A program made the translations under genes and the position numbers. A stretch of DNA of 64,000 bases from Escherichia phage EJP2. Shown here piece by piece: positions 16,847 through 30,289 of the stretch (positions are counted from its first letter, which is position 1; the number at the start of each line of letters is the position of its first letter). The notes below the pieces were generated by a model. The model worked only from the letters and a program-made list of their open reading frames with translations. It did not search any database and had not been told where the DNA came from. Where the stretch lies: sequence record OQ411014.1; one strand, given 5' to 3'.

Positions 16847-17620
16847 ATGGCAAATATGTTAGACAAATACGGTGTACCGCTACCTAGTGGAGCTAACCGT
16901 ACAATGCTCCAGCCAAAAGCAAAGTATAAATTCAGAGTAATTGTATACAATTTCGGTACTGAGATTGATGAACGTGATCACATCGCACTGGACGTTGATG
17001 CAGTAGATAGACCAAGCATTACATTCAAAACACATAAGGTGTTTCAGTTCACCACGAACTCATCCTATGTTGGTAGCCACGACTGGAACCCAATTAAATT
17101 AACAATTCGTGATTCTATTGGTAACAAAAGTACTAAAGCGATTTCACGTCAATTACAAAAACAACTTGACTTTCAACGTAGGATTACGGCAAAATCAGAA
17201 CAGGATTATTCAGGCTATAAGTTCGGCATGATTATCCAAATGCTAAATGGTAGAAATAGTGATGATTCTCTTGACAATCTAGGAAGAGACACTATAATTG
17301 ATGCTGCAACTGCTGCAACCAATAATGGTGGTTTAGTTAACGCTGTGGATCAATTCCTAGGTGGAAGCAACTACAACAGTGCTGGAGTTATGGAGTACTT
17401 TGTATGTACTGGTTGTATCATAACTGATACCGACTATGATTCACTGGACTACTCTTCAAGTGCACCATTGAAAATATCCCTTACTATTAAGCCGGATACT
17501 GTACATCAATTTGATTCAATTGAGGAAATGTATAAAACCCGCATATCTTCTTTACTACCAGATGGTGTGAATCAGGGTCTTGATATACTTGATCGCATAA
17601 TCGGTTCAGTAGGTTTATAA
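16847..17620 (+). CDS. tail tube protein paralog
   Basis: N-terminus MANMLDKYGVPLPSG...KAKYKFRV nearly identical to the upstream gene. ATG at 16847 with GAGG RBS. Confidence 0.65.
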   Translation: MANMLDKYGVPLPSGANRTMLQPKAKYKFRVIVYNFGTEIDERDHIALDVDAVDRPSITFKTHKVFQFTTNSSYVGSHDWNPIKLTIRDSIGNKSTKAISRQLQKQLDFQRRITAKSEQDYSGYKFGMIIQMLNGRNSDDSLDNLGRDTIIDAATAATNNGGLVNAVDQFLGGSNYNSAGVMEYFVCTGCIITDTDYDSLDYSSSAPLKISLTIKPDTVHQFDSIEEMYKTRISSLLPDGVNQGLDILDRIIGSVGL

Positions 17621-23749: not shown

Positions 23750-24130
23750 ATGATGATGATACCGCCAACTGATCGTACTGACTCCCAGATGGAAGTACTT
23801 TCTAAAATACGGTCAGTACAAGTGGAAAAATCTGACTTAACCGACCGTTTAGTACTGAAGTCTATCTTTGAAAATTACAGATCCGGTTCGGGTATGAGAT
23901 TGAGTAAATTTGGTAAAGAGATGTGCATTGAGCATGAACTCTATGAGTTTGCTAAGTTTAATATCCCTAAAGGAACTAAGAAATCAGTACTGTTTATAAC
24001 GCTTGACAGATTATGCAAAGAGCCGTATTATGTAGAAGGTTTCGATGTGTTTCTGTCGGATGCACAAGTAATAACAGAACTGACATTTTGTTGTGATGAT
24101 TTTGAAAAATTGATTAAACTTTATTTGTGA
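23750..24130 (+). CDS. hypothetical protein
   Basis: 126-aa ORF. No recognisable motifs. Confidence 0.5.
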   Translation: MMMIPPTDRTDSQMEVLSKIRSVQVEKSDLTDRLVLKSIFENYRSGSGMRLSKFGKEMCIEHELYEFAKFNIPKGTKKSVLFITLDRLCKEPYYVEGFDVFLSDAQVITELTFCCDDFEKLIKLYL

Positions 24131-24154
24131 CAAACCAATAAAGTGTGATATAAT
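24125..24154 (+). promoter_or_regulatory. early promoter (TTGTGA -35, TGn TATAAT)
   Basis: TTGTGA 24125-24130, TG 24146-24147, TATAAT 24149-24154. Confidence 0.45.
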
Positions 24155-24301
24155 AGTTTTACAGTTTACAAGGCACTCTGATTTAAAATAAAATAAAATC
24201 AAAAGTGCCTTCTCTTTTGCCAAAATTTATGATACACTATAAATTCTGACAAAAGCATCTCACTAAAACGAGATGAGTTAAAAAAAGATTTAAAAAAGTG
24301 G

Positions 24302-24330
24302 TTGACAAGGCATTAAGAAGTACGTATAAT
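24302..24330 (+). promoter_or_regulatory. perfect-consensus sigma70 promoter
   Basis: TTGACA 24302-24307, exactly 17 bp, TATAAT 24325-24330. Upstream of the MoxR/VWA operon. Confidence 0.6.
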
Positions 24331-24448
24331 TAATCACATCAAGACGAGAACGTGATTGAACAAATGAGAAAAAGGACTTGACTCTACCAACGGATTTTGG
24401 TAAACTAAACAAACTTTACTTATCATCAATAAATGAGGAATCAATACT

Positions 24449-25780
24449 ATGTCTACTAACAACGACCTGCTGAACATCAAACTGTCCCCAAAACAAGCTA
24501 AAGCTGCTATGGAAGCTGCTGACCTGTGCCGCGATAGTCTGATGATTTGGGGTGCACCTGGTATCGGTAAATCCGCAATTGCACGTCAATACGCTGATGA
24601 GAAATATCCACTGCGTAAAGACAACGTTGGTCGTATCGCATCTCTGAACAATCGTATTGCTCAAGAAACTGATGCTGATGAGAAGAAAGCACTAGAACGT
24701 GAACTGGCTTCACTAGAATCCAAACTGATTGATCAAGATACCAACTTCATTGACTTCCGTCTGTCTCAGATTGAACCAACTGACTTACGTGGTATCCCAG
24801 TTCCAGAAAAACTGTTCCGTTCTACTAACGGTAACCTGTTGAAAGAATCTGAACTGGCTGAAGCGAAAGAGTACGTAGCTGAAACCGCAGTAACTTGGGC
24901 TGCTCCTAAAGTACTGAAACTGGCTGACGATTGGAAAGGTGTGATTCTGTTTGATGAAATCAACTCCGCAATGCCGATTGTACAAGCAGCGTCCTACCAG
25001 CTAATTCTGGACCGTTGTGTTGGTGAAATGAAACTACCATCTACTGCACTGATTCTTGCAGCAGGTAACCGTGACGGTGACGGCGGTGTAACTTTCACCC
25101 TAGCTACTCCACTGCGTGACCGTATGACTCACATTGAAGTCACTCCGAATCACACTGACTGGATTGATGACTATGCAATCAACAAGCGTCTGAACGCAGC
25201 GACTGTAGCATTCATCAACAACACTGGTAGCAAGTACTTCAACACGCTAGACCCGAACAACCCAAGCCATGCTGGTGGTACTTCTCCACGCTCTTGGGAA
25301 AAAGTAGCCGAGTACGAAGATCTGAATCAAAAAGGTCTGTTGACTAAAGAAATCTACCGTGCTATGATTGCTGGACGTGTTACCGATGGTATCGCAGTTG
25401 AGTACATCGAGTTTGTTGAGAACGTTGCATCTCTACCAGATACCATGAAGATTCTGACTGGTGAGATCAAAGAGATTGATAAAGACTTGGATATTTCTTC
25501 CAACTACTTCATCACTCTGAACCTAGTGTACAAGATTATCGCACTCTTCGAAGAGAAGAATGAGAAACGTCTAAGTGCAGAAGAGTGGAACCAAATGGCG
25601 AATAACTTCGTAGTGTTCCTAGACCACAACTTCTCTGCAACACAAGGTGAGTTGGCAGTACTAGCAATTCGTAACATTACTATCGCAGGTGTTACTATGT
25701 CTTACAACGATGTTCCAGCGTTCCAGCCGTTCGTAAAACGCTACATGGGTCTAGTTCGTAAAGCACGTGCACTGAAGTAA
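24449..25780 (+). CDS. MoxR/CbbQ-like AAA+ ATPase (AAA_5 type)
   Basis: Walker A IWGAPGIGKS and Walker B ILFDEINSAMP. GAGGAA RBS. Preceded by a perfect-consensus promoter. Confidence 0.8.
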   Translation: MSTNNDLLNIKLSPKQAKAAMEAADLCRDSLMIWGAPGIGKSAIARQYADEKYPLRKDNVGRIASLNNRIAQETDADEKKALERELASLESKLIDQDTNFIDFRLSQIEPTDLRGIPVPEKLFRSTNGNLLKESELAEAKEYVAETAVTWAAPKVLKLADDWKGVILFDEINSAMPIVQAASYQLILDRCVGEMKLPSTALILAAGNRDGDGGVTFTLATPLRDRMTHIEVTPNHTDWIDDYAINKRLNAATVAFINNTGSKYFNTLDPNNPSHAGGTSPRSWEKVAEYEDLNQKGLLTKEIYRAMIAGRVTDGIAVEYIEFVENVASLPDTMKILTGEIKEIDKDLDISSNYFITLNLVYKIIALFEEKNEKRLSAEEWNQMANNFVVFLDHNFSATQGELAVLAIRNITIAGVTMSYNDVPAFQPFVKRYMGLVRKARALK

Positions 25781-25790
25781 TAACTCAAAA

Positions 25791-25817
25791 GGAGGCTGAA
25801 TAATCAGTCTCCTTTTT
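25791..25817 (+). terminator. rho-independent terminator
   Basis: GGAGGCTGA-ATAA-TCAGTCTCC followed by TTTTT. Confidence 0.55.
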
Positions 25818-25840
25818 AAACAAACCGAGGAAATCATATA

Positions 25841-27253
25841 ATGAGTAAATTCAATAATTTGTCTACTAAACTTCCCGATTCAGTTTTGCAAGAATGTAAT
25901 GAACGTATGGTACTAGCTCGTACTTCACTGATGCTCTCTAAACCATTCTTTGGTGTTTTGGCATCTCGTCTTCGCCCAGTACCGAATGATACTTGGTGTC
26001 GTACGATGGCAGTAGATGGCAAACACTTGTACTATAACGTAGAATTCGTTATGGGTTTACAAGACCAAACTAAACGTGCACAATACGAAGAAGCACTAAA
26101 AGAATCAATCGACGATATCAGTACTGAACAAATCAATGACGTACTGAACGGTCTATCTGACCAGAACCTGATTGCTGTACTGTGTCATGAAATTCTTCAC
26201 TGTGCTTATGACCACTTCTTGCGTCGTGGTATGCGTGACCCACAACTGTTCAACAAAGCTGCTGACTATGCAATCAACCAGATTCTAGTTCGTGAAAACA
26301 TTGGTAAGATTCAGTCTTCTTGGTTGTACGACAAGAAATATGACGGAATGACCGCTGAAGAAATCTATGTTCTTCTTGAAGAAGAGAAGAAGAAAGAAGA
26401 GCAAGAAAACGGTGGTGGTGATGGCGACGGTGATGGTTCCGATGACCAAGATGGCGATGGTGACGGAAACAGCAACGGTGGTGGTAAGAAGAAAGGTAAG
26501 AAAGGTAAAGGCGGCACAATTGACCAGCATGACGTACCACAAGAAGGTGATGGTGAAGTAAGTGATGCCAAGCGTCGTGAATATATGGAAGATTTCAAAA
26601 CTGCAATGATGAACGCAGCACGTGCTGGTGGTACTCCAGCAGAAATCGAACGTATGATTGACTCCTTCACTAAACCAAAAATCGACTGGCGTTCTAAACT
26701 ACAACGTACTATGCGTTCTTGCATGAAGTCCGATGTAATTTTCTCTAACCCAAGTCGTCGTTCTTGGAGTACGGGCTTCGGTCACAGTGGTTCTTTCTTT
26801 GGTTCTCCTATCTTCCCAGGACTGAAACCAGATGAAGATATTGATATTGCAATTGCACTTGATGCGTCAGGTTCTATCAGTAATGATATGTTGCGTGACT
26901 TCATCAGTGAAGTGATGGGAATCACCAAACAGTTCAAACAGTTCAAGATTCGTATTATGACTTTTGATACTAAGGTTTATACTGTTCGTGATTATAAAAC
27001 TGGTGAAGAGAAGAAGATTCTAGAATATCCAGTTCATGGAGGTGGTGGTACTGATTTCCAAGCAGTTTGGGATCATATGCGTGATGACAACTACCGTCCA
27101 AAACAACTCGTAATGTTCACTGATGGTGAGCCGTGGGATTCCTGGGGTGACGAAAACTATTGTAAGACTCTTTTCGTAATCCACTCCAACCCTGAAAAGA
27201 TTGCACCATTCGGTGAAACCGTACACTACGAGTACGAAGCGAAGCAACACTAA
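25841..27253 (+). CDS. VWA-domain protein with N-terminal HExxH metallopeptidase-like motif
   Basis: HEILHCAYDH motif; MIDAS LDASGSIS and MFTDGEP in the C-terminal VWA domain; Gly/Asp low-complexity linker. Partner of the upstream ATPase. Confidence 0.75.
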   Translation: MSKFNNLSTKLPDSVLQECNERMVLARTSLMLSKPFFGVLASRLRPVPNDTWCRTMAVDGKHLYYNVEFVMGLQDQTKRAQYEEALKESIDDISTEQINDVLNGLSDQNLIAVLCHEILHCAYDHFLRRGMRDPQLFNKAADYAINQILVRENIGKIQSSWLYDKKYDGMTAEEIYVLLEEEKKKEEQENGGGDGDGDGSDDQDGDGDGNSNGGGKKKGKKGKGGTIDQHDVPQEGDGEVSDAKRREYMEDFKTAMMNAARAGGTPAEIERMIDSFTKPKIDWRSKLQRTMRSCMKSDVIFSNPSRRSWSTGFGHSGSFFGSPIFPGLKPDEDIDIAIALDASGSISNDMLRDFISEVMGITKQFKQFKIRIMTFDTKVYTVRDYKTGEEKKILEYPVHGGGGTDFQAVWDHMRDDNYRPKQLVMFTDGEPWDSWGDENYCKTLFVIHSNPEKIAPFGETVHYEYEAKQH

Positions 27254-27261
27254 TATAAATA

Positions 27262-27298
27262 ATGCGTAAGTTCAGGATGTTCTTACGCATTTTATTTT
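27262..27298 (+). terminator. rho-independent terminator
   Basis: ATGCGTAAG ... CTTACGCAT stem followed by TTTTATTTT. Confidence 0.55.
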
Positions 27299-27326
27299 GA
27301 GATATCATAAGAAATTGTGATATAAT
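27297..27326 (+). promoter_or_regulatory. early promoter (TTGAGA -35, TGn TATAAT)
   Basis: TTGAGA 27297-27302, TG 27318-27319, TATAAT 27321-27326. Confidence 0.5.
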
Positions 27327-27358
27327 ATGAGTACAATAAACAATACATGGAGTGTATT

Positions 27359-27589
27359 ATGAGTGAACAAAACCAAGAACAACTAAGCATTGAAATTGAA
27401 GATATCATCAATGCAACCAAAATCATGGAAGCAGCAATCAAAGCGGGTGCTTTCGGTGTTGAAGACTTAGTAAAAGTTGCACCAATTGTTGACCGTTTCA
27501 TCAAGTTCAGTAATGCAATTATTGAACAACACAACAAAAATGTTGAAGCTCAAGAAGCGGCACAAAATGGAGGTACTGACCATGAGTAA
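27359..27589 (+). CDS. hypothetical protein
   Basis: ATG at 27359 with GGAG RBS, downstream of the early promoter at 27297-27326. Confidence 0.45.
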   Translation: MSEQNQEQLSIEIEDIINATKIMEAAIKAGAFGVEDLVKVAPIVDRFIKFSNAIIEQHNKNVEAQEAAQNGGTDHE

Positions 27590-28232
27590 GATTATCCGTC
27601 ACCAAGGTGTAGTTCGTAGTACTGGTTCCCGTGTGTTCGTTCTATGGCGACACATTCCTGATGATATCAACCACTGCCTAGTCATTTATCGTGACTCTAT
27701 TCCTGAAGTTTATATGCATACAGTGAATGAACTTGTAATGAATCAAGGTCAGAAAAGCGTTGAACTATGGGAAGTGATGGATAAAGTTGGTTATCTTGAT
27801 AATCGTAAAATGCTTGATGTTCTACACAATCTAGGTTATATTCGTAAGCAACGTACATGTGACATTGACATGCACGTGGGTGGTGGTGCGAAAGTTGCAC
27901 TCGACGAACTAAATGCTAGTATTCTTGAAGAGCGTATCCATCAAGATGGTAAAGTCAAAGACTTCAACCCATTTGATGCAAATGCACAAGACAGTACTGC
28001 TGAACGTGGTACAATCGTTGATAAACTAATTGCAGATGCAGAACAGTATCTACGTCTTCATGAAGAAAATCTTGAACGTGCTTATAACATCGACCCATCT
28101 CGTCGTCCAGTAGTTGAAGCGGCTGGTGAAGAAGATGATACCACATTCTCTATCGTTCTTGAGAAAGGCGTTTCCCAAGCGAAAGCAATTGAAATCGTCA
28201 AAAAAGCACTAGCAGCACAAAAGGCAAAATAA
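27582..28232 (+). CDS. hypothetical protein
   Basis: ATG at 27582 with GGAGG RBS. Overlaps the upstream stop. Confidence 0.5.
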   Translation: MSKIIRHQGVVRSTGSRVFVLWRHIPDDINHCLVIYRDSIPEVYMHTVNELVMNQGQKSVELWEVMDKVGYLDNRKMLDVLHNLGYIRKQRTCDIDMHVGGGAKVALDELNASILEERIHQDGKVKDFNPFDANAQDSTAERGTIVDKLIADAEQYLRLHEENLERAYNIDPSRRPVVEAAGEEDDTTFSIVLEKGVSQAKAIEIVKKALAAQKAK

Positions 28233-28233
28233 T

Positions 28234-28530
28234 ATGACTCGTGATGAAATCATTCAAATGATTCTCACTGAGCGTAATCGTCAAACAGAGAATCCAAACA
28301 CTGTTTCTGACTTACACAAAACCAAAAATGATTGGGCTGCTTTGGCAGCCTATTATTTGTTTGAAGGTGCAAGTCGTTCCGATAAACATGTATCTTTCGA
28401 AGAGTTTCGTAGTTCTCTAGTTCAAACTGCTGCCGTCATTATTGCAGCACTAGAAACCAGCTATGCTCATGAGAATGAAACGGTTCGAGATTTACTATCT
28501 CAACTGGAAAATAAAGATGACAAGCAATGA
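28234..28530 (+). CDS. hypothetical protein
   Basis: 98-aa ORF. No recognisable motifs. Confidence 0.45.
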   Translation: MTRDEIIQMILTERNRQTENPNTVSDLHKTKNDWAALAAYYLFEGASRSDKHVSFEEFRSSLVQTAAVIIAALETSYAHENETVRDLLSQLENKDDKQ

Positions 28531-29107
28531 GTTACAACTTGCTCTTAGTGATCTAGATAATGTATGTTATAGTGGCGGTGCTAAAGGGGCAGACCGCCTC
28601 TTTGGTATCTGGGCTACTGAAAATGGTTTTCAAGAAGTACATTTCTCTTTCAAGAAACATAATTATGTTGTAGATGAAAGTACTATCATTGAAATTCCAG
28701 ATTCGATTCTACAGGATAGTACTGTAATCGATAAACTCAAGAAAGCGAACTACTCTTTAGGAAGAAGTATTCCAAAGAAAGGTTCTTATGTTTATAATCT
28801 ACTTGCACGTAATACGTTTCAAGTTCTTCTTACTGAACGTGTGTATTGCATCAGTCCTTTAGCATCACCAACAACCGTTTCAGGTGGTACAGCATGGGCT
28901 GTTCAAATGTACATTGACCAGTACGAGAATCCTGTAATTTACGGTTATGACCCACTTCGGAAAGAAGCATATCAGTACTGTAATACTAAGAAAGAATTCA
29001 TTACAGTTGATTCTGTTCCAGCACCTACTGGTAAATGGACAGGTATTGGTTCACGTGAAACTACAGAGAATCACATGCAAGCATTCGTTAGTTACTTCAG
29101 GAGTTGA
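28517..29107 (+). CDS. hypothetical protein with SLOG/DprA-like Rossmann motif
   Basis: YSGGAKGADRLFG resembles the GxARGID-type signature of Smf/DprA-LOG superfamily enzymes. Weak assignment. Confidence 0.4.
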   Translation: MTSNELQLALSDLDNVCYSGGAKGADRLFGIWATENGFQEVHFSFKKHNYVVDESTIIEIPDSILQDSTVIDKLKKANYSLGRSIPKKGSYVYNLLARNTFQVLLTERVYCISPLASPTTVSGGTAWAVQMYIDQYENPVIYGYDPLRKEAYQYCNTKKEFITVDSVPAPTGKWTGIGSRETTENHMQAFVSYFRS

Positions 29108-29373
29108 TGATGAGTGATGAGTGTGATAATTGCGATTACCGTTATGAATCAGGCCACAGAGACGGATATGAGCAAGGTTGTAAAGACTCCAGTTCGGAAA
29201 ATTACGAACAAGGTTATAAAGATGCAAAAGACGAAGGTGCTAGAGAATTAGATGATCAATTAGCGAACATGAGTTCGAACTTCTCTAGTGTAATACGAGA
29301 TTTAGTTGCAAGGAATAAGCAACTACAGCAAGAAATTTATGAGATAAGGAAATCCAATGCAACAGCTTCATGA
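29104..29373 (+). CDS. hypothetical protein
   Basis: ATGA overlap with the upstream gene. Internal YEQGxKD repeats. Confidence 0.45.
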   Translation: MMMSDECDNCDYRYESGHRDGYEQGCKDSSSENYEQGYKDAKDEGARELDDQLANMSSNFSSVIRDLVARNKQLQQEIYEIRKSNATAS

Positions 29374-30289
29374 TTTATATTCAAAAGTACTAAACGAAGG
29401 TGTCACATCAGAAGACCGTACTGGTACTGGTACTATCAAACTGATTGGTCAACAAATGCGTTTCGATTTGAAAGAAGGCTTCCCAGCGACAACAACGAAA
29501 CGTCTAGCATGGAAAGCAATGACTTCTGAACTGTTGTGGTTCCTCGAAGGTTCACAAAACGAACGTCGTTTATGTGAAATTCTACATGGTACTACTGACC
29601 CAGAGAAACGTACAATCTGGACTGGTAACTATGAGAATCAAGGACAGAAACTTGGATACGTCAATGGCAATCTCGGCCCTGTTTATGGTAAACAATGGCG
29701 TGAGTGGGAAGATGTAGTTATCCTTCCTGGTGTGTACACTGAAGTAGTAAAACATACTGAAATGGGTTACAATCTAGTTGAACGTACTACTAGTGGTATG
29801 TATGTAATGCAACGTACTATTGACCAGATTGCAGTACTGGTTGATGGTTTGAAGAATGATCCAAACGGTCGCCGCCACATCCTATCTGCATGGAACGTTG
29901 GTGATTTAGATAAGATGGCACTACCACCTTGTCATAGTTTTGTTCAGTTCTTTGTGGTTGATGGTAAGCTAAGTTGCTCACTATATCAACGCAGTGCAGA
30001 TCTCTTTTTAGGTGTACCATTCAATATTTCAAGTTATTCTCTACTAACTCATATGCTTGCACAAGTGTGTGGTTTGGATGTTGGTGAGTTCATTTGGAAT
30101 GGTGGTGACTGTCACATTTATCTAAACCACATCGACCAAGTTCGTGAACAATTGTCACGTGAACCAAAAGAATTACCACAATTGTGGTTGGATGAAAATA
30201 TTACTGATATTGATACATTTACAATGGATTCGTTCAAACTTCTGAACTACAATCCTGATTCAGTAATCAAAGCACCAATGGCAGTTTAA
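29357..30289 (+). CDS. thyA: thymidylate synthase
   Basis: RTGTGT...QMRFDL, ELLWFL and active-site PPCHSF ... LGVPFNISSYSLLTHM motifs. Confidence 0.9.
   Translation: MQQLHDLYSKVLNEGVTSEDRTGTGTIKLIGQQMRFDLKEGFPATTTKRLAWKAMTSELLWFLEGSQNERRLCEILHGTTDPEKRTIWTGNYENQGQKLGYVNGNLGPVYGKQWREWEDVVILPGVYTEVVKHTEMGYNLVERTTSGMYVMQRTIDQIAVLVDGLKNDPNGRRHILSAWNVGDLDKMALPPCHSFVQFFVVDGKLSCSLYQRSADLFLGVPFNISSYSLLTHMLAQVCGLDVGEFIWNGGDCHIYLNHIDQVREQLSREPKELPQLWLDENITDIDTFTMDSFKLLNYNPDSVIKAPMAV

Follow-up and report, generated by a model that had tools for sequence, protein, structure and literature searches.

The gp24/gp25-like gene pair of Escherichia phage EJP2: a MoxR-class ATPase and a predicted zincin-VWA partner in a jumbo phage

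What does a phage do with an ATPase of the MoxR class and, beside it, a protein that joins a putative peptidase to a von Willebrand factor A (VWA) domain? Two such genes lie next to each other in Escherichia phage EJP2, a Rak2-like jumbo phage and myovirus. We analysed a window of 64,000 nucleotides (nt) from its sequence record (OQ411014.1), in which the two genes are co-directional on the plus strand, at 24449-25780 and 25841-27253, with a 60-nt gap between them. Both open reading frames (ORFs) are found where an earlier inspection of the letters, here called the sequence-only reading, had placed them. We put the probability at roughly 55% that this locus is the Rak2-like jumbo-phage version of the gp24/gp25 module of phage N4 and that it acts as a motor-driven protease that remodels and cuts a selected protein.

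The product of the first gene (443 amino acids, 49.4 kDa) is the ortholog of N4 gp24, RaK2 gp053 and phAPEC6 gp265c. Its assignment to the MoxR class of AAA+ ATPases is well supported, via motifs, distant homologs and fold and not via a direct family score. The protein has a Walker A motif (GAPGIGKS, residues 35-42) and a Walker B motif (ILFDE, residues 166-170), and an alignment of 82 homologs, reaching down to about 30% identity, showed nine invariant residues (G35, G38, K41, S42, D169, E170, N207, R225 and R281). R225 lies within LRDRM and R281 within TSPRS, and an [ST]PR motif is present in 120 of 120 homologs. By the motifs of MoxR proteins, we take N207 to be sensor 1, R225 the arginine finger ("DRF" type) and R281 sensor 2 ("SPR"). 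The gene is preceded by a Shine-Dalgarno sequence, read from the sequence as GAGG (24435-24438, plus strand), 10 nt 5' of the ATG.

The ATPase scores below the Pfam gathering cut-offs for AAA_5 (17.2 against 22 bits) and AAA (19.2 against 21.2 bits) as well as for AAA_16 and Mg_chelatase, and its close homologs have no precomputed Pfam domain. Of the earlier description as a MoxR-like AAA_5 ATPase, the class and the Walker motifs, six residues of which are invariant in the 82 homologs, therefore stand, but the formal AAA_5 match does not. The Pfam miss is probably due to inserts: compared with N4 gp24, the EJP2 protein has about 90 extra residues, in a helical hairpin after Walker A and in a longer beta insert. 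Homologs at about 30% identity carry PF07728 or PF07726. Its best structural matches include NorQ and CbbQ, and the fold, which is CbbQ/NorQ-like, was closest to known MoxR, dynein or midasin-type modules. The C-terminal helical region (residues 235-443) is much larger than in the CbbQ/NorQ systems. Neither single-sequence nor profile searches of the PDB gave a solved relative of either protein of the pair; they returned only P-loop-level matches and a weak match to an integrin VWA domain, and an NCBIfam scan of both proteins gave no match.

The second gene encodes a partner protein of 470 amino acids (53.3 kDa), the ortholog of N4 gp25. Pfam recognizes in it DUF2201_N (PF13203, putative metallopeptidase; 2e-38) fused to DUF2201 (VWA-like; 5e-20), in agreement with the sequence-only reading, which had seen a VWA protein with an HExxH motif and the DxSxS of a metal ion-dependent adhesion site (MIDAS). 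The two motifs are HEILH at residues 116-120 and DASGS at residues 341-345. Eight residues are invariant among 85 homologs (H116, E117, H120, D341, S343, S345, T404 and D428), and of the 240 homologs in the jumbo-phage and N4-like sets, 239 have HExxHx4H and 239 have DxSxS. Loss of HExxH among homologs had been named beforehand as an observation that would refute the sequence-only reading; the motif is instead almost universally kept. The MIDAS set is complete (D341-x-S343-x-S345...T404...D428), and a fold search with the partner returned VWA domains with their Rossmann-like fold, including the VWA domain of NorD and BchD. The peptidase half gave weak cross-matches to Peptidase_M48, PhageMetallopep, DUF5700, M56 and SprT-like families. 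Residues 182-240, approximately, form a disordered insert that is acidic and rich in Gly and Lys. As judged from sequence, the partner is thus a predicted zincin HExxH peptidase domain followed by a VWA domain with a complete MIDAS. The catalytic residues that such a pair would need to remodel and cut a protein are all conserved, and this speaks against a degenerate or purely structural protein.

The databases tell a different story about this second gene. Members of the VWA-metallopeptidase family are often annotated as "HNH endonuclease" or "homing endonuclease", as in PHROG 1314, N4 gp25, Hallingskeid CDS0447 and phage G gp576, and the HNH label on PHROG 1314 is repeated in many GenBank records. 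If these labels were right, gene 2 would encode a nuclease. No HNH family was detected in Pfam scans of the partner or of its 85 homologs; DUF2201_N and the VWA-like domain account for the whole length of the protein, and its fold matches are VWA domains. We therefore give an HNH endonuclease practically no chance, and the label is apparently a mistaken annotation that has been propagated. In some rV5-like records the matching region is labelled "putative anti-sigma factor", for which our searches gave no support.

The EJP2 pair and the gp24/gp25 pair of N4 (Schitoviridae) are homologous over most of their length (BLASTP 9e-27 for gp24 and 8e-24 for gp25), and share gene order, strand, HExxHx4H and DxSxS. 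They are nevertheless only 24-26% identical. Like the ATPase, the EJP2 partner is about 90 residues longer than its N4 counterpart, the disordered insert included. The EJP2 pair has sigma-70-type promoters, whereas the middle genes of N4 are served by N4 RNAPII, and EJP2 is a jumbo myovirus, whereas N4 is a podovirus. The kinship has been noted in other records: those of RaK2 are labelled "gp24-like" and "gp25-like", and those of phAPEC6 "MoxR ATPase" and "N4 gp25-like". The pair is also the same entity as the "group 2.2" pair of Iyer, Anantharaman, Krishnan, Burroughs and Aravind (2021, Viruses 13:63), a MoxR ATPase with a vWA co-chaperone that has an N-terminal metallopeptidase, and EJP2 is a new relative of the phages with that pair. 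The module has thus already been described (N4 gp24/gp25; Iyer et al. 2021), and EJP2 does not introduce a system of a new kind. What it offers is a corrected annotation, a map of the transcription unit and evidence from context that questions the sole published proposal of a function.

The pair is widespread among phages. Of 50,697 phage records searched by tblastn, 801 have a match to the ATPase and 433 to the partner, with matches in Rak2-like, PA5oct-like, rV5-like, Campylobacter and N4-like phages, and with phage G among the partner matches; 52 phage records match at 60% identity or more for each protein. Podoviruses and myoviruses both have the pair, and their hosts range from Roseobacter to Bacillus. 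The two genes are adjacent in N4, RaK2 and phAPEC6, and of the 30 distant loci whose upstream sequence was long enough, 29 have the ATPase gene upstream of the partner gene on the same strand. A hidden ATPase upstream of the partner was considered for rV5, KB57 and phage G and rejected (hhalign probability below 1%). The loci from our genome scan are mainly contigs of metagenome-assembled genomes (MAGs) and Rhizobiales. In the one of these whose neighbours were scanned individually, in Brucella pecoris, the pair lies inside a phage-type replication block. With N4 gp25 as query, the top 120 matches were all proteins of N4-like phages, with no cellular homolog among them, and neither this search nor the genome scan demonstrated a truly cellular version of the subfamily.

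How the two proteins might work together is suggested by other pairings of MoxR ATPases with vWA proteins, reviewed in PMC7159879. The best mechanistic analogues are CbbQ-CbbO (Rubisco activase) and NorQ-NorD (nitric-oxide reductase maturation), in which the partner also has a MIDAS-containing VWA domain; identity to these is 14-17%, however, CbbO and NorD are without the zincin domain, and their clients are known cellular enzymes. RavA-ViaA of Escherichia coli is likewise composed of a MoxR ATPase and a VWA protein (PMC3893208, PMC7159879), but RavA has a LARA domain, ViaA has no peptidase, and the PDB sequence searches gave no significant match to either. A viral precedent is the MoxR/vWA system with p618 of Acidianus two-tailed virus (ATV), whose proteins are virion-associated; ATV is, however, an archaeal virus and its vWA protein lacks a peptidase. 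By analogy with CbbQ-CbbO, NorQ-NorD and midasin, an ATPase hexamer of EJP2 would dock the VWA partner, the MIDAS metal would latch onto an acidic residue of the target protein, and ATP-driven remodelling would feed that target to the zincin site for cleavage. If this is true, the combination of a MoxR motor, a MIDAS adaptor and a built-in protease would be an unusual viral way to select and cut one specific protein, and naming the target would show what this very common pair of phage genes is for.

When the pair is made bears on what it may act on, and here the 24131-24448 leader and the signals around the genes are informative. All promoters described here are on the plus strand. The most upstream, P1 (GTGACA-16-TATAAT, 24127-24154), has an extended -10 (TGTGATATAAT) and matches the consensus at 11 of 12 positions with the TG; its -35 overlaps the stop codon of the upstream ORF. 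Its TGTGATATAAT is invariant across six aligned Rak2-like leaders (EJP2 and five relatives). The last consensus-grade promoter before the ATPase gene is P3, a perfect TTGACA-17-TATAAT (12 of 12; 24302-24330). The window has three perfect promoter matches against 0.11 expected, a number reached in 0 of 100 shuffles; the other two, both TTGACA-N16-TATAAT on the plus strand, are at 1869-1896 and at 17271-17298, the latter within the structural-gene region. P3 falls inside a stretch of about 190 nt of the leader that does not align with the five relatives, and the leaders of JNE01, PBECO4 and RaK2 have TTGACA-16-TATAAT promoters of their own. A weak promoter-like site (TTGACT-17-TAAACT with TG, 9 of 12; 24378-24406) resembles, by eye, the proximal "GGATTGGTATAAT" element of the relatives. 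Strong sigma-70-type promoters before the pair are therefore, on sequence grounds, a clade-wide feature whose exact arrangement varies. The early promoter, the hairpins and the perfect promoter that the sequence-only reading had described in this leader are all present, but it is P1 and not the perfect promoter that is conserved. TATAAATA, the T4-type late motif, does not occur in the leader and is not enriched in the window (4 against 5.9 expected).

Downstream of P1 we detected a terminator-like hairpin, T0 (AAGGCACT...AGTGCCTT followed by CTCTTTTGCC; 24170-24221, plus strand), of which the part at 24170-24212 folds at -14.2 kcal/mol (z -3.3 against shuffled sequence). T0 is kept in the relatives by compensatory changes in the stem (GGCACU/AGUGCC against GGAACUG/CAGUUCC), and CCTT..CTTTTGC of the T0 region is invariant in the leader alignment. 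The spacing from P1 to T0 is about 15 nt, and both are conserved. Together they could yield an RNA of about 60 nt; T0 could also be an attenuator or could merely end the upstream operon. An Rfam scan of the leader gave no match. A small hairpin (CATCTC-N8-GAGATG; 24256-24275, plus strand) folds at -7.4 kcal/mol (z -4.7), is also terminator-like on the minus strand and is unaligned in the five relatives. Downstream of P3, the structure of the leader is ordinary (24337-24448, z +0.14).

Two further terminators delimit the genes on the plus strand. T1 (AAAAGGAGGCTGA-ATAA-TCAGTCTCCTTTTT; 25787-25817) is an intrinsic terminator in the gap between the two genes (-18 kcal/mol, z -4.7; none of 200 shuffles was as stable). 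Five relatives have a hairpin and U-run at the same position with unrelated stem sequences, and the record of Salmonella phage Munch annotates a terminator there. T2 (AATGCGTAAG...CTTACGCATT and then a T-run; 27261-27298) lies 3' of the partner gene (fold of 27250-27350, -21.8 kcal/mol, z -3.5) and is likewise annotated in the Munch record. The 3' limit of the module is set by the promoter of the next unit, TTGAGA-18-TATAAT with an exact TGTGATATAAT (11 of 12 with TG; 27297-27326). The predicted order of the unit is thus promoters, T0, promoter, ATPase, T1, partner, T2. The sequence-only reading had called the genes a two-gene operon; their common direction and short gap agree with this, but the conserved T1, which that reading had not noted, means that the operon is not free of internal signals. 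Conservation of T1 suggests a fixed but unequal output of the two proteins. If only some of the transcripts read through T1, ATPase would exceed partner, as would befit a many-to-one complex.

The sigma-70-type promoters point to transcription by host RNA polymerase and thereby argue for expression before the late phase, as the sequence-only reading had proposed when it spoke of strong early expression. In the mechanism that we favour, host RNA polymerase would transcribe the pair before the late phase. The genomic surroundings of the pair outside the Rak2-like phages bear on the same question. In N4, the pair is on the early/middle strand and is followed by a dCTP deaminase gene, and in roseophages the RNAPII genes flank it on one side and those for dCMP deaminase and thymidylate synthase on the other (PMC2784036). 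LUZ7, another N4-like phage, has its genes for structure and lysis on the opposite strand, transcribed only late, and its middle genes are mainly for replication (PMC9163698); gp24 and gp25 belong to the set of 14 genes that form the core of N4-like phages (PMC4193335). Across 24 distant loci, the genes near the pair include those for thymidylate synthase (several PHROG families), DNA ligase, exonuclease, sliding clamp, DHFR, Ku and methyltransferases, and no family described as structural is among the 25 most frequent PHROG families there. Sigma-70-type promoters, the lack of a T4-like late motif, the DNA-metabolism neighbourhoods and the position in N4-like genomes together modestly favour an intracellular function before the late phase over a structural role. 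The main text of the PA5oct omics paper and the text of the RaK2 paper do not mention the pair. The PA5oct noncoding RNA ncRNA003 (103065-103368; PMC7318152, Table 1) is about 2 kb upstream of the gp24-like ATPase site in PA5oct-like phages (Paride 105366-106454).

The proposal made for the "group 2.2" jumbo phages is that the pair is a chaperone of virion assembly or maturation that proteolytically processes structural proteins. Iyer et al. (2021, section 3.4.5) drew it from the analogy with a MoxR-vWA system that Acidianus two-tailed virus requires to develop its tails (PMC7824862). Several observations weigh against our reading of the locus, and two of them fall on the side of this proposal. 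The ATPase ortholog gp265c is among the 62 virion-associated proteins of phAPEC6 identified with electrospray ionization tandem mass spectrometry (six peptides, 19% coverage), and in EJP2 and Hallingskeid the genes directly before the pair, on the same strand, are annotated as virion structural; the EJP2 window as a whole is mostly a structural-gene region. The partner gp264c is, however, missing from the phAPEC6 table, in which the thymidylate synthase gp259c is present with three peptides, so carry-over of abundant soluble proteins is possible. The sequence-only reading had stated that packaged virion components with no host interaction would refute it, and the evidence for a virion role goes some way towards this. 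Other points run counter to an assembly role: the pair has sigma-70-type promoters and terminators of its own and not a T4-like late motif, N4-like phages place it in an early/middle replication block on the strand opposite to the structural genes, its distant neighbours are genes of DNA and nucleotide metabolism, and it is common to podoviruses and myoviruses, whose virions are very different. We regard the virion-assembly chaperone as possible but unlikely, and the promoters, the internal terminator and the DNA-metabolism neighbourhoods call a purely virion-assembly role into question. Further points against our own reading are that the late promoters of N4 are themselves weakly sigma-70-like, so that a sigma-70-like promoter is no proof of early timing; that the peptidase half matched no solved relative in PDB sequence and fold searches, with H125, D142 and E173 as candidates for the third zinc ligand; and that rV5-like phages have about 4 kb between the two genes while RudolfGeigy and KB57 have them on opposite strands, which means that co-transcription is not universal. 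Literature searches found no experimental report of the function of the pair, and its mechanism, stoichiometry and target are those that we infer.

The structural matches to NorQ and CbbQ, and those of the VWA domain to NorD and BchD, would also fit a chaperone that inserts a metal or cofactor. NorQ-NorD serves to put iron into nitric-oxide reductase, and CobS-CobT and BchI-BchD are chelatases; in a system of this style the HExxH would be a metal-binding or regulatory module. The ATPase of a related prophage cross-matches PHROG 249 "porphyrin biosynthesis" (taken as a CobS-like group), and the pair sits amid nucleotide-metabolism genes. Yet both His of HExxH and its catalytic Glu are invariant, as expected of an active peptidase, no chelatase or NorD-type family is significant in Pfam or NCBIfam, and no candidate client metalloenzyme is consistently adjacent, which makes this explanation improbable. 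Slightly more improbable still is a component of an NTP-dependent conflict system, that is, a defence or anti-defence device carried by the phage, a link that the sequence-only reading had raised. MoxR-vWA modules are at the core of several conflict systems (PMC7159879), and strong promoter-driven expression would suit counter-defence. Neither protein, however, has a PADLOC match at E values up to 0.01, no third component (such as VMAP) or effector was recognized, the flanking ORFs are without Pfam match and two of them are conserved, and genes of defence and anti-defence typically have a patchy distribution, unlike this pair with its core-gene status in N4-like phages and its wide host range. 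The conflict link thus found no backing.

For the gp24/gp25-like protease machine that we prefer, the nature of the target can be named only tentatively. A host protein or complex has the best claim, although with clearly less than even odds, and the earlier idea of remodelling or proteolytic inactivation of a host complex is plausible, being compatible with the data. A virion protein is a somewhat weaker candidate, a phage protein of replication or nucleotide metabolism a weaker one again, and a target of some other kind would be a surprise. A more specific version, in which the pair is a targeted protease machine, attacks a conserved protein of the cell or of the replication phase before the late phase begins, is functionally coupled to the genes for dTMP and DNA synthesis that accompany it in podoviruses, myoviruses and prophages, and is not a virion-assembly chaperone, is a speculative extension that we consider rather unlikely as a whole.

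At the nucleotide level, 24100-27300 is most similar to Erwinia phage Hallingskeid (79% identity) and next to members of Asteriusvirus (PBECO4, 121Q and phAPEC6), Salmonella phage Munch and Klebsiella phage RaK2. Contigs from three public sequencing runs encode proteins identical to the EJP2 pair. Two conserved neighbours, possible members of the module, flank it on the plus strand. Upstream is a protein of 126 amino acids (23750-24130) that matches phrog_15638, homologs of which precede the ATPase gene in five distant MAG loci. Downstream is a protein of 209 amino acids (27603-28232) that matches phrog_15894 (3e-89); its homologs directly follow the partner gene in eight distant loci and are close to that gene in the PA5oct-like phage Cassandra. 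The flanking ORFs at 23750-24130 and 27347-28232 gave no Pfam match. Both neighbours stay beside the pair in distant jumbo-phage-like contigs in which identity of the partner is down to 36-39%. In phAPEC6, the ortholog of the 209-residue protein, gp262c, is represented by one peptide in virion mass spectrometry.

A thymidylate synthase gene lies 2 kb downstream of the pair in the EJP2 window. Between them is an ORF of 214 amino acids (28463-29107) that matches PHROG 768 (DprA-like DNA recombination-mediator protein) and has a weak Pfam match to YAcAr of the SLOG type. The thymidylate synthase gene of EJP2 (29357-30289) is intact and encodes 310 amino acids. In a contig of run SRR27143232 (locus L047, 6517-7413), which encodes an identical partner protein, thymidylate synthase is called at 212 amino acids and is followed by a gene for a GIY-YIG homing endonuclease similar to I-TevI. 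The difference looks like a mobile insertion in the style of T4 td that varies between isolates.

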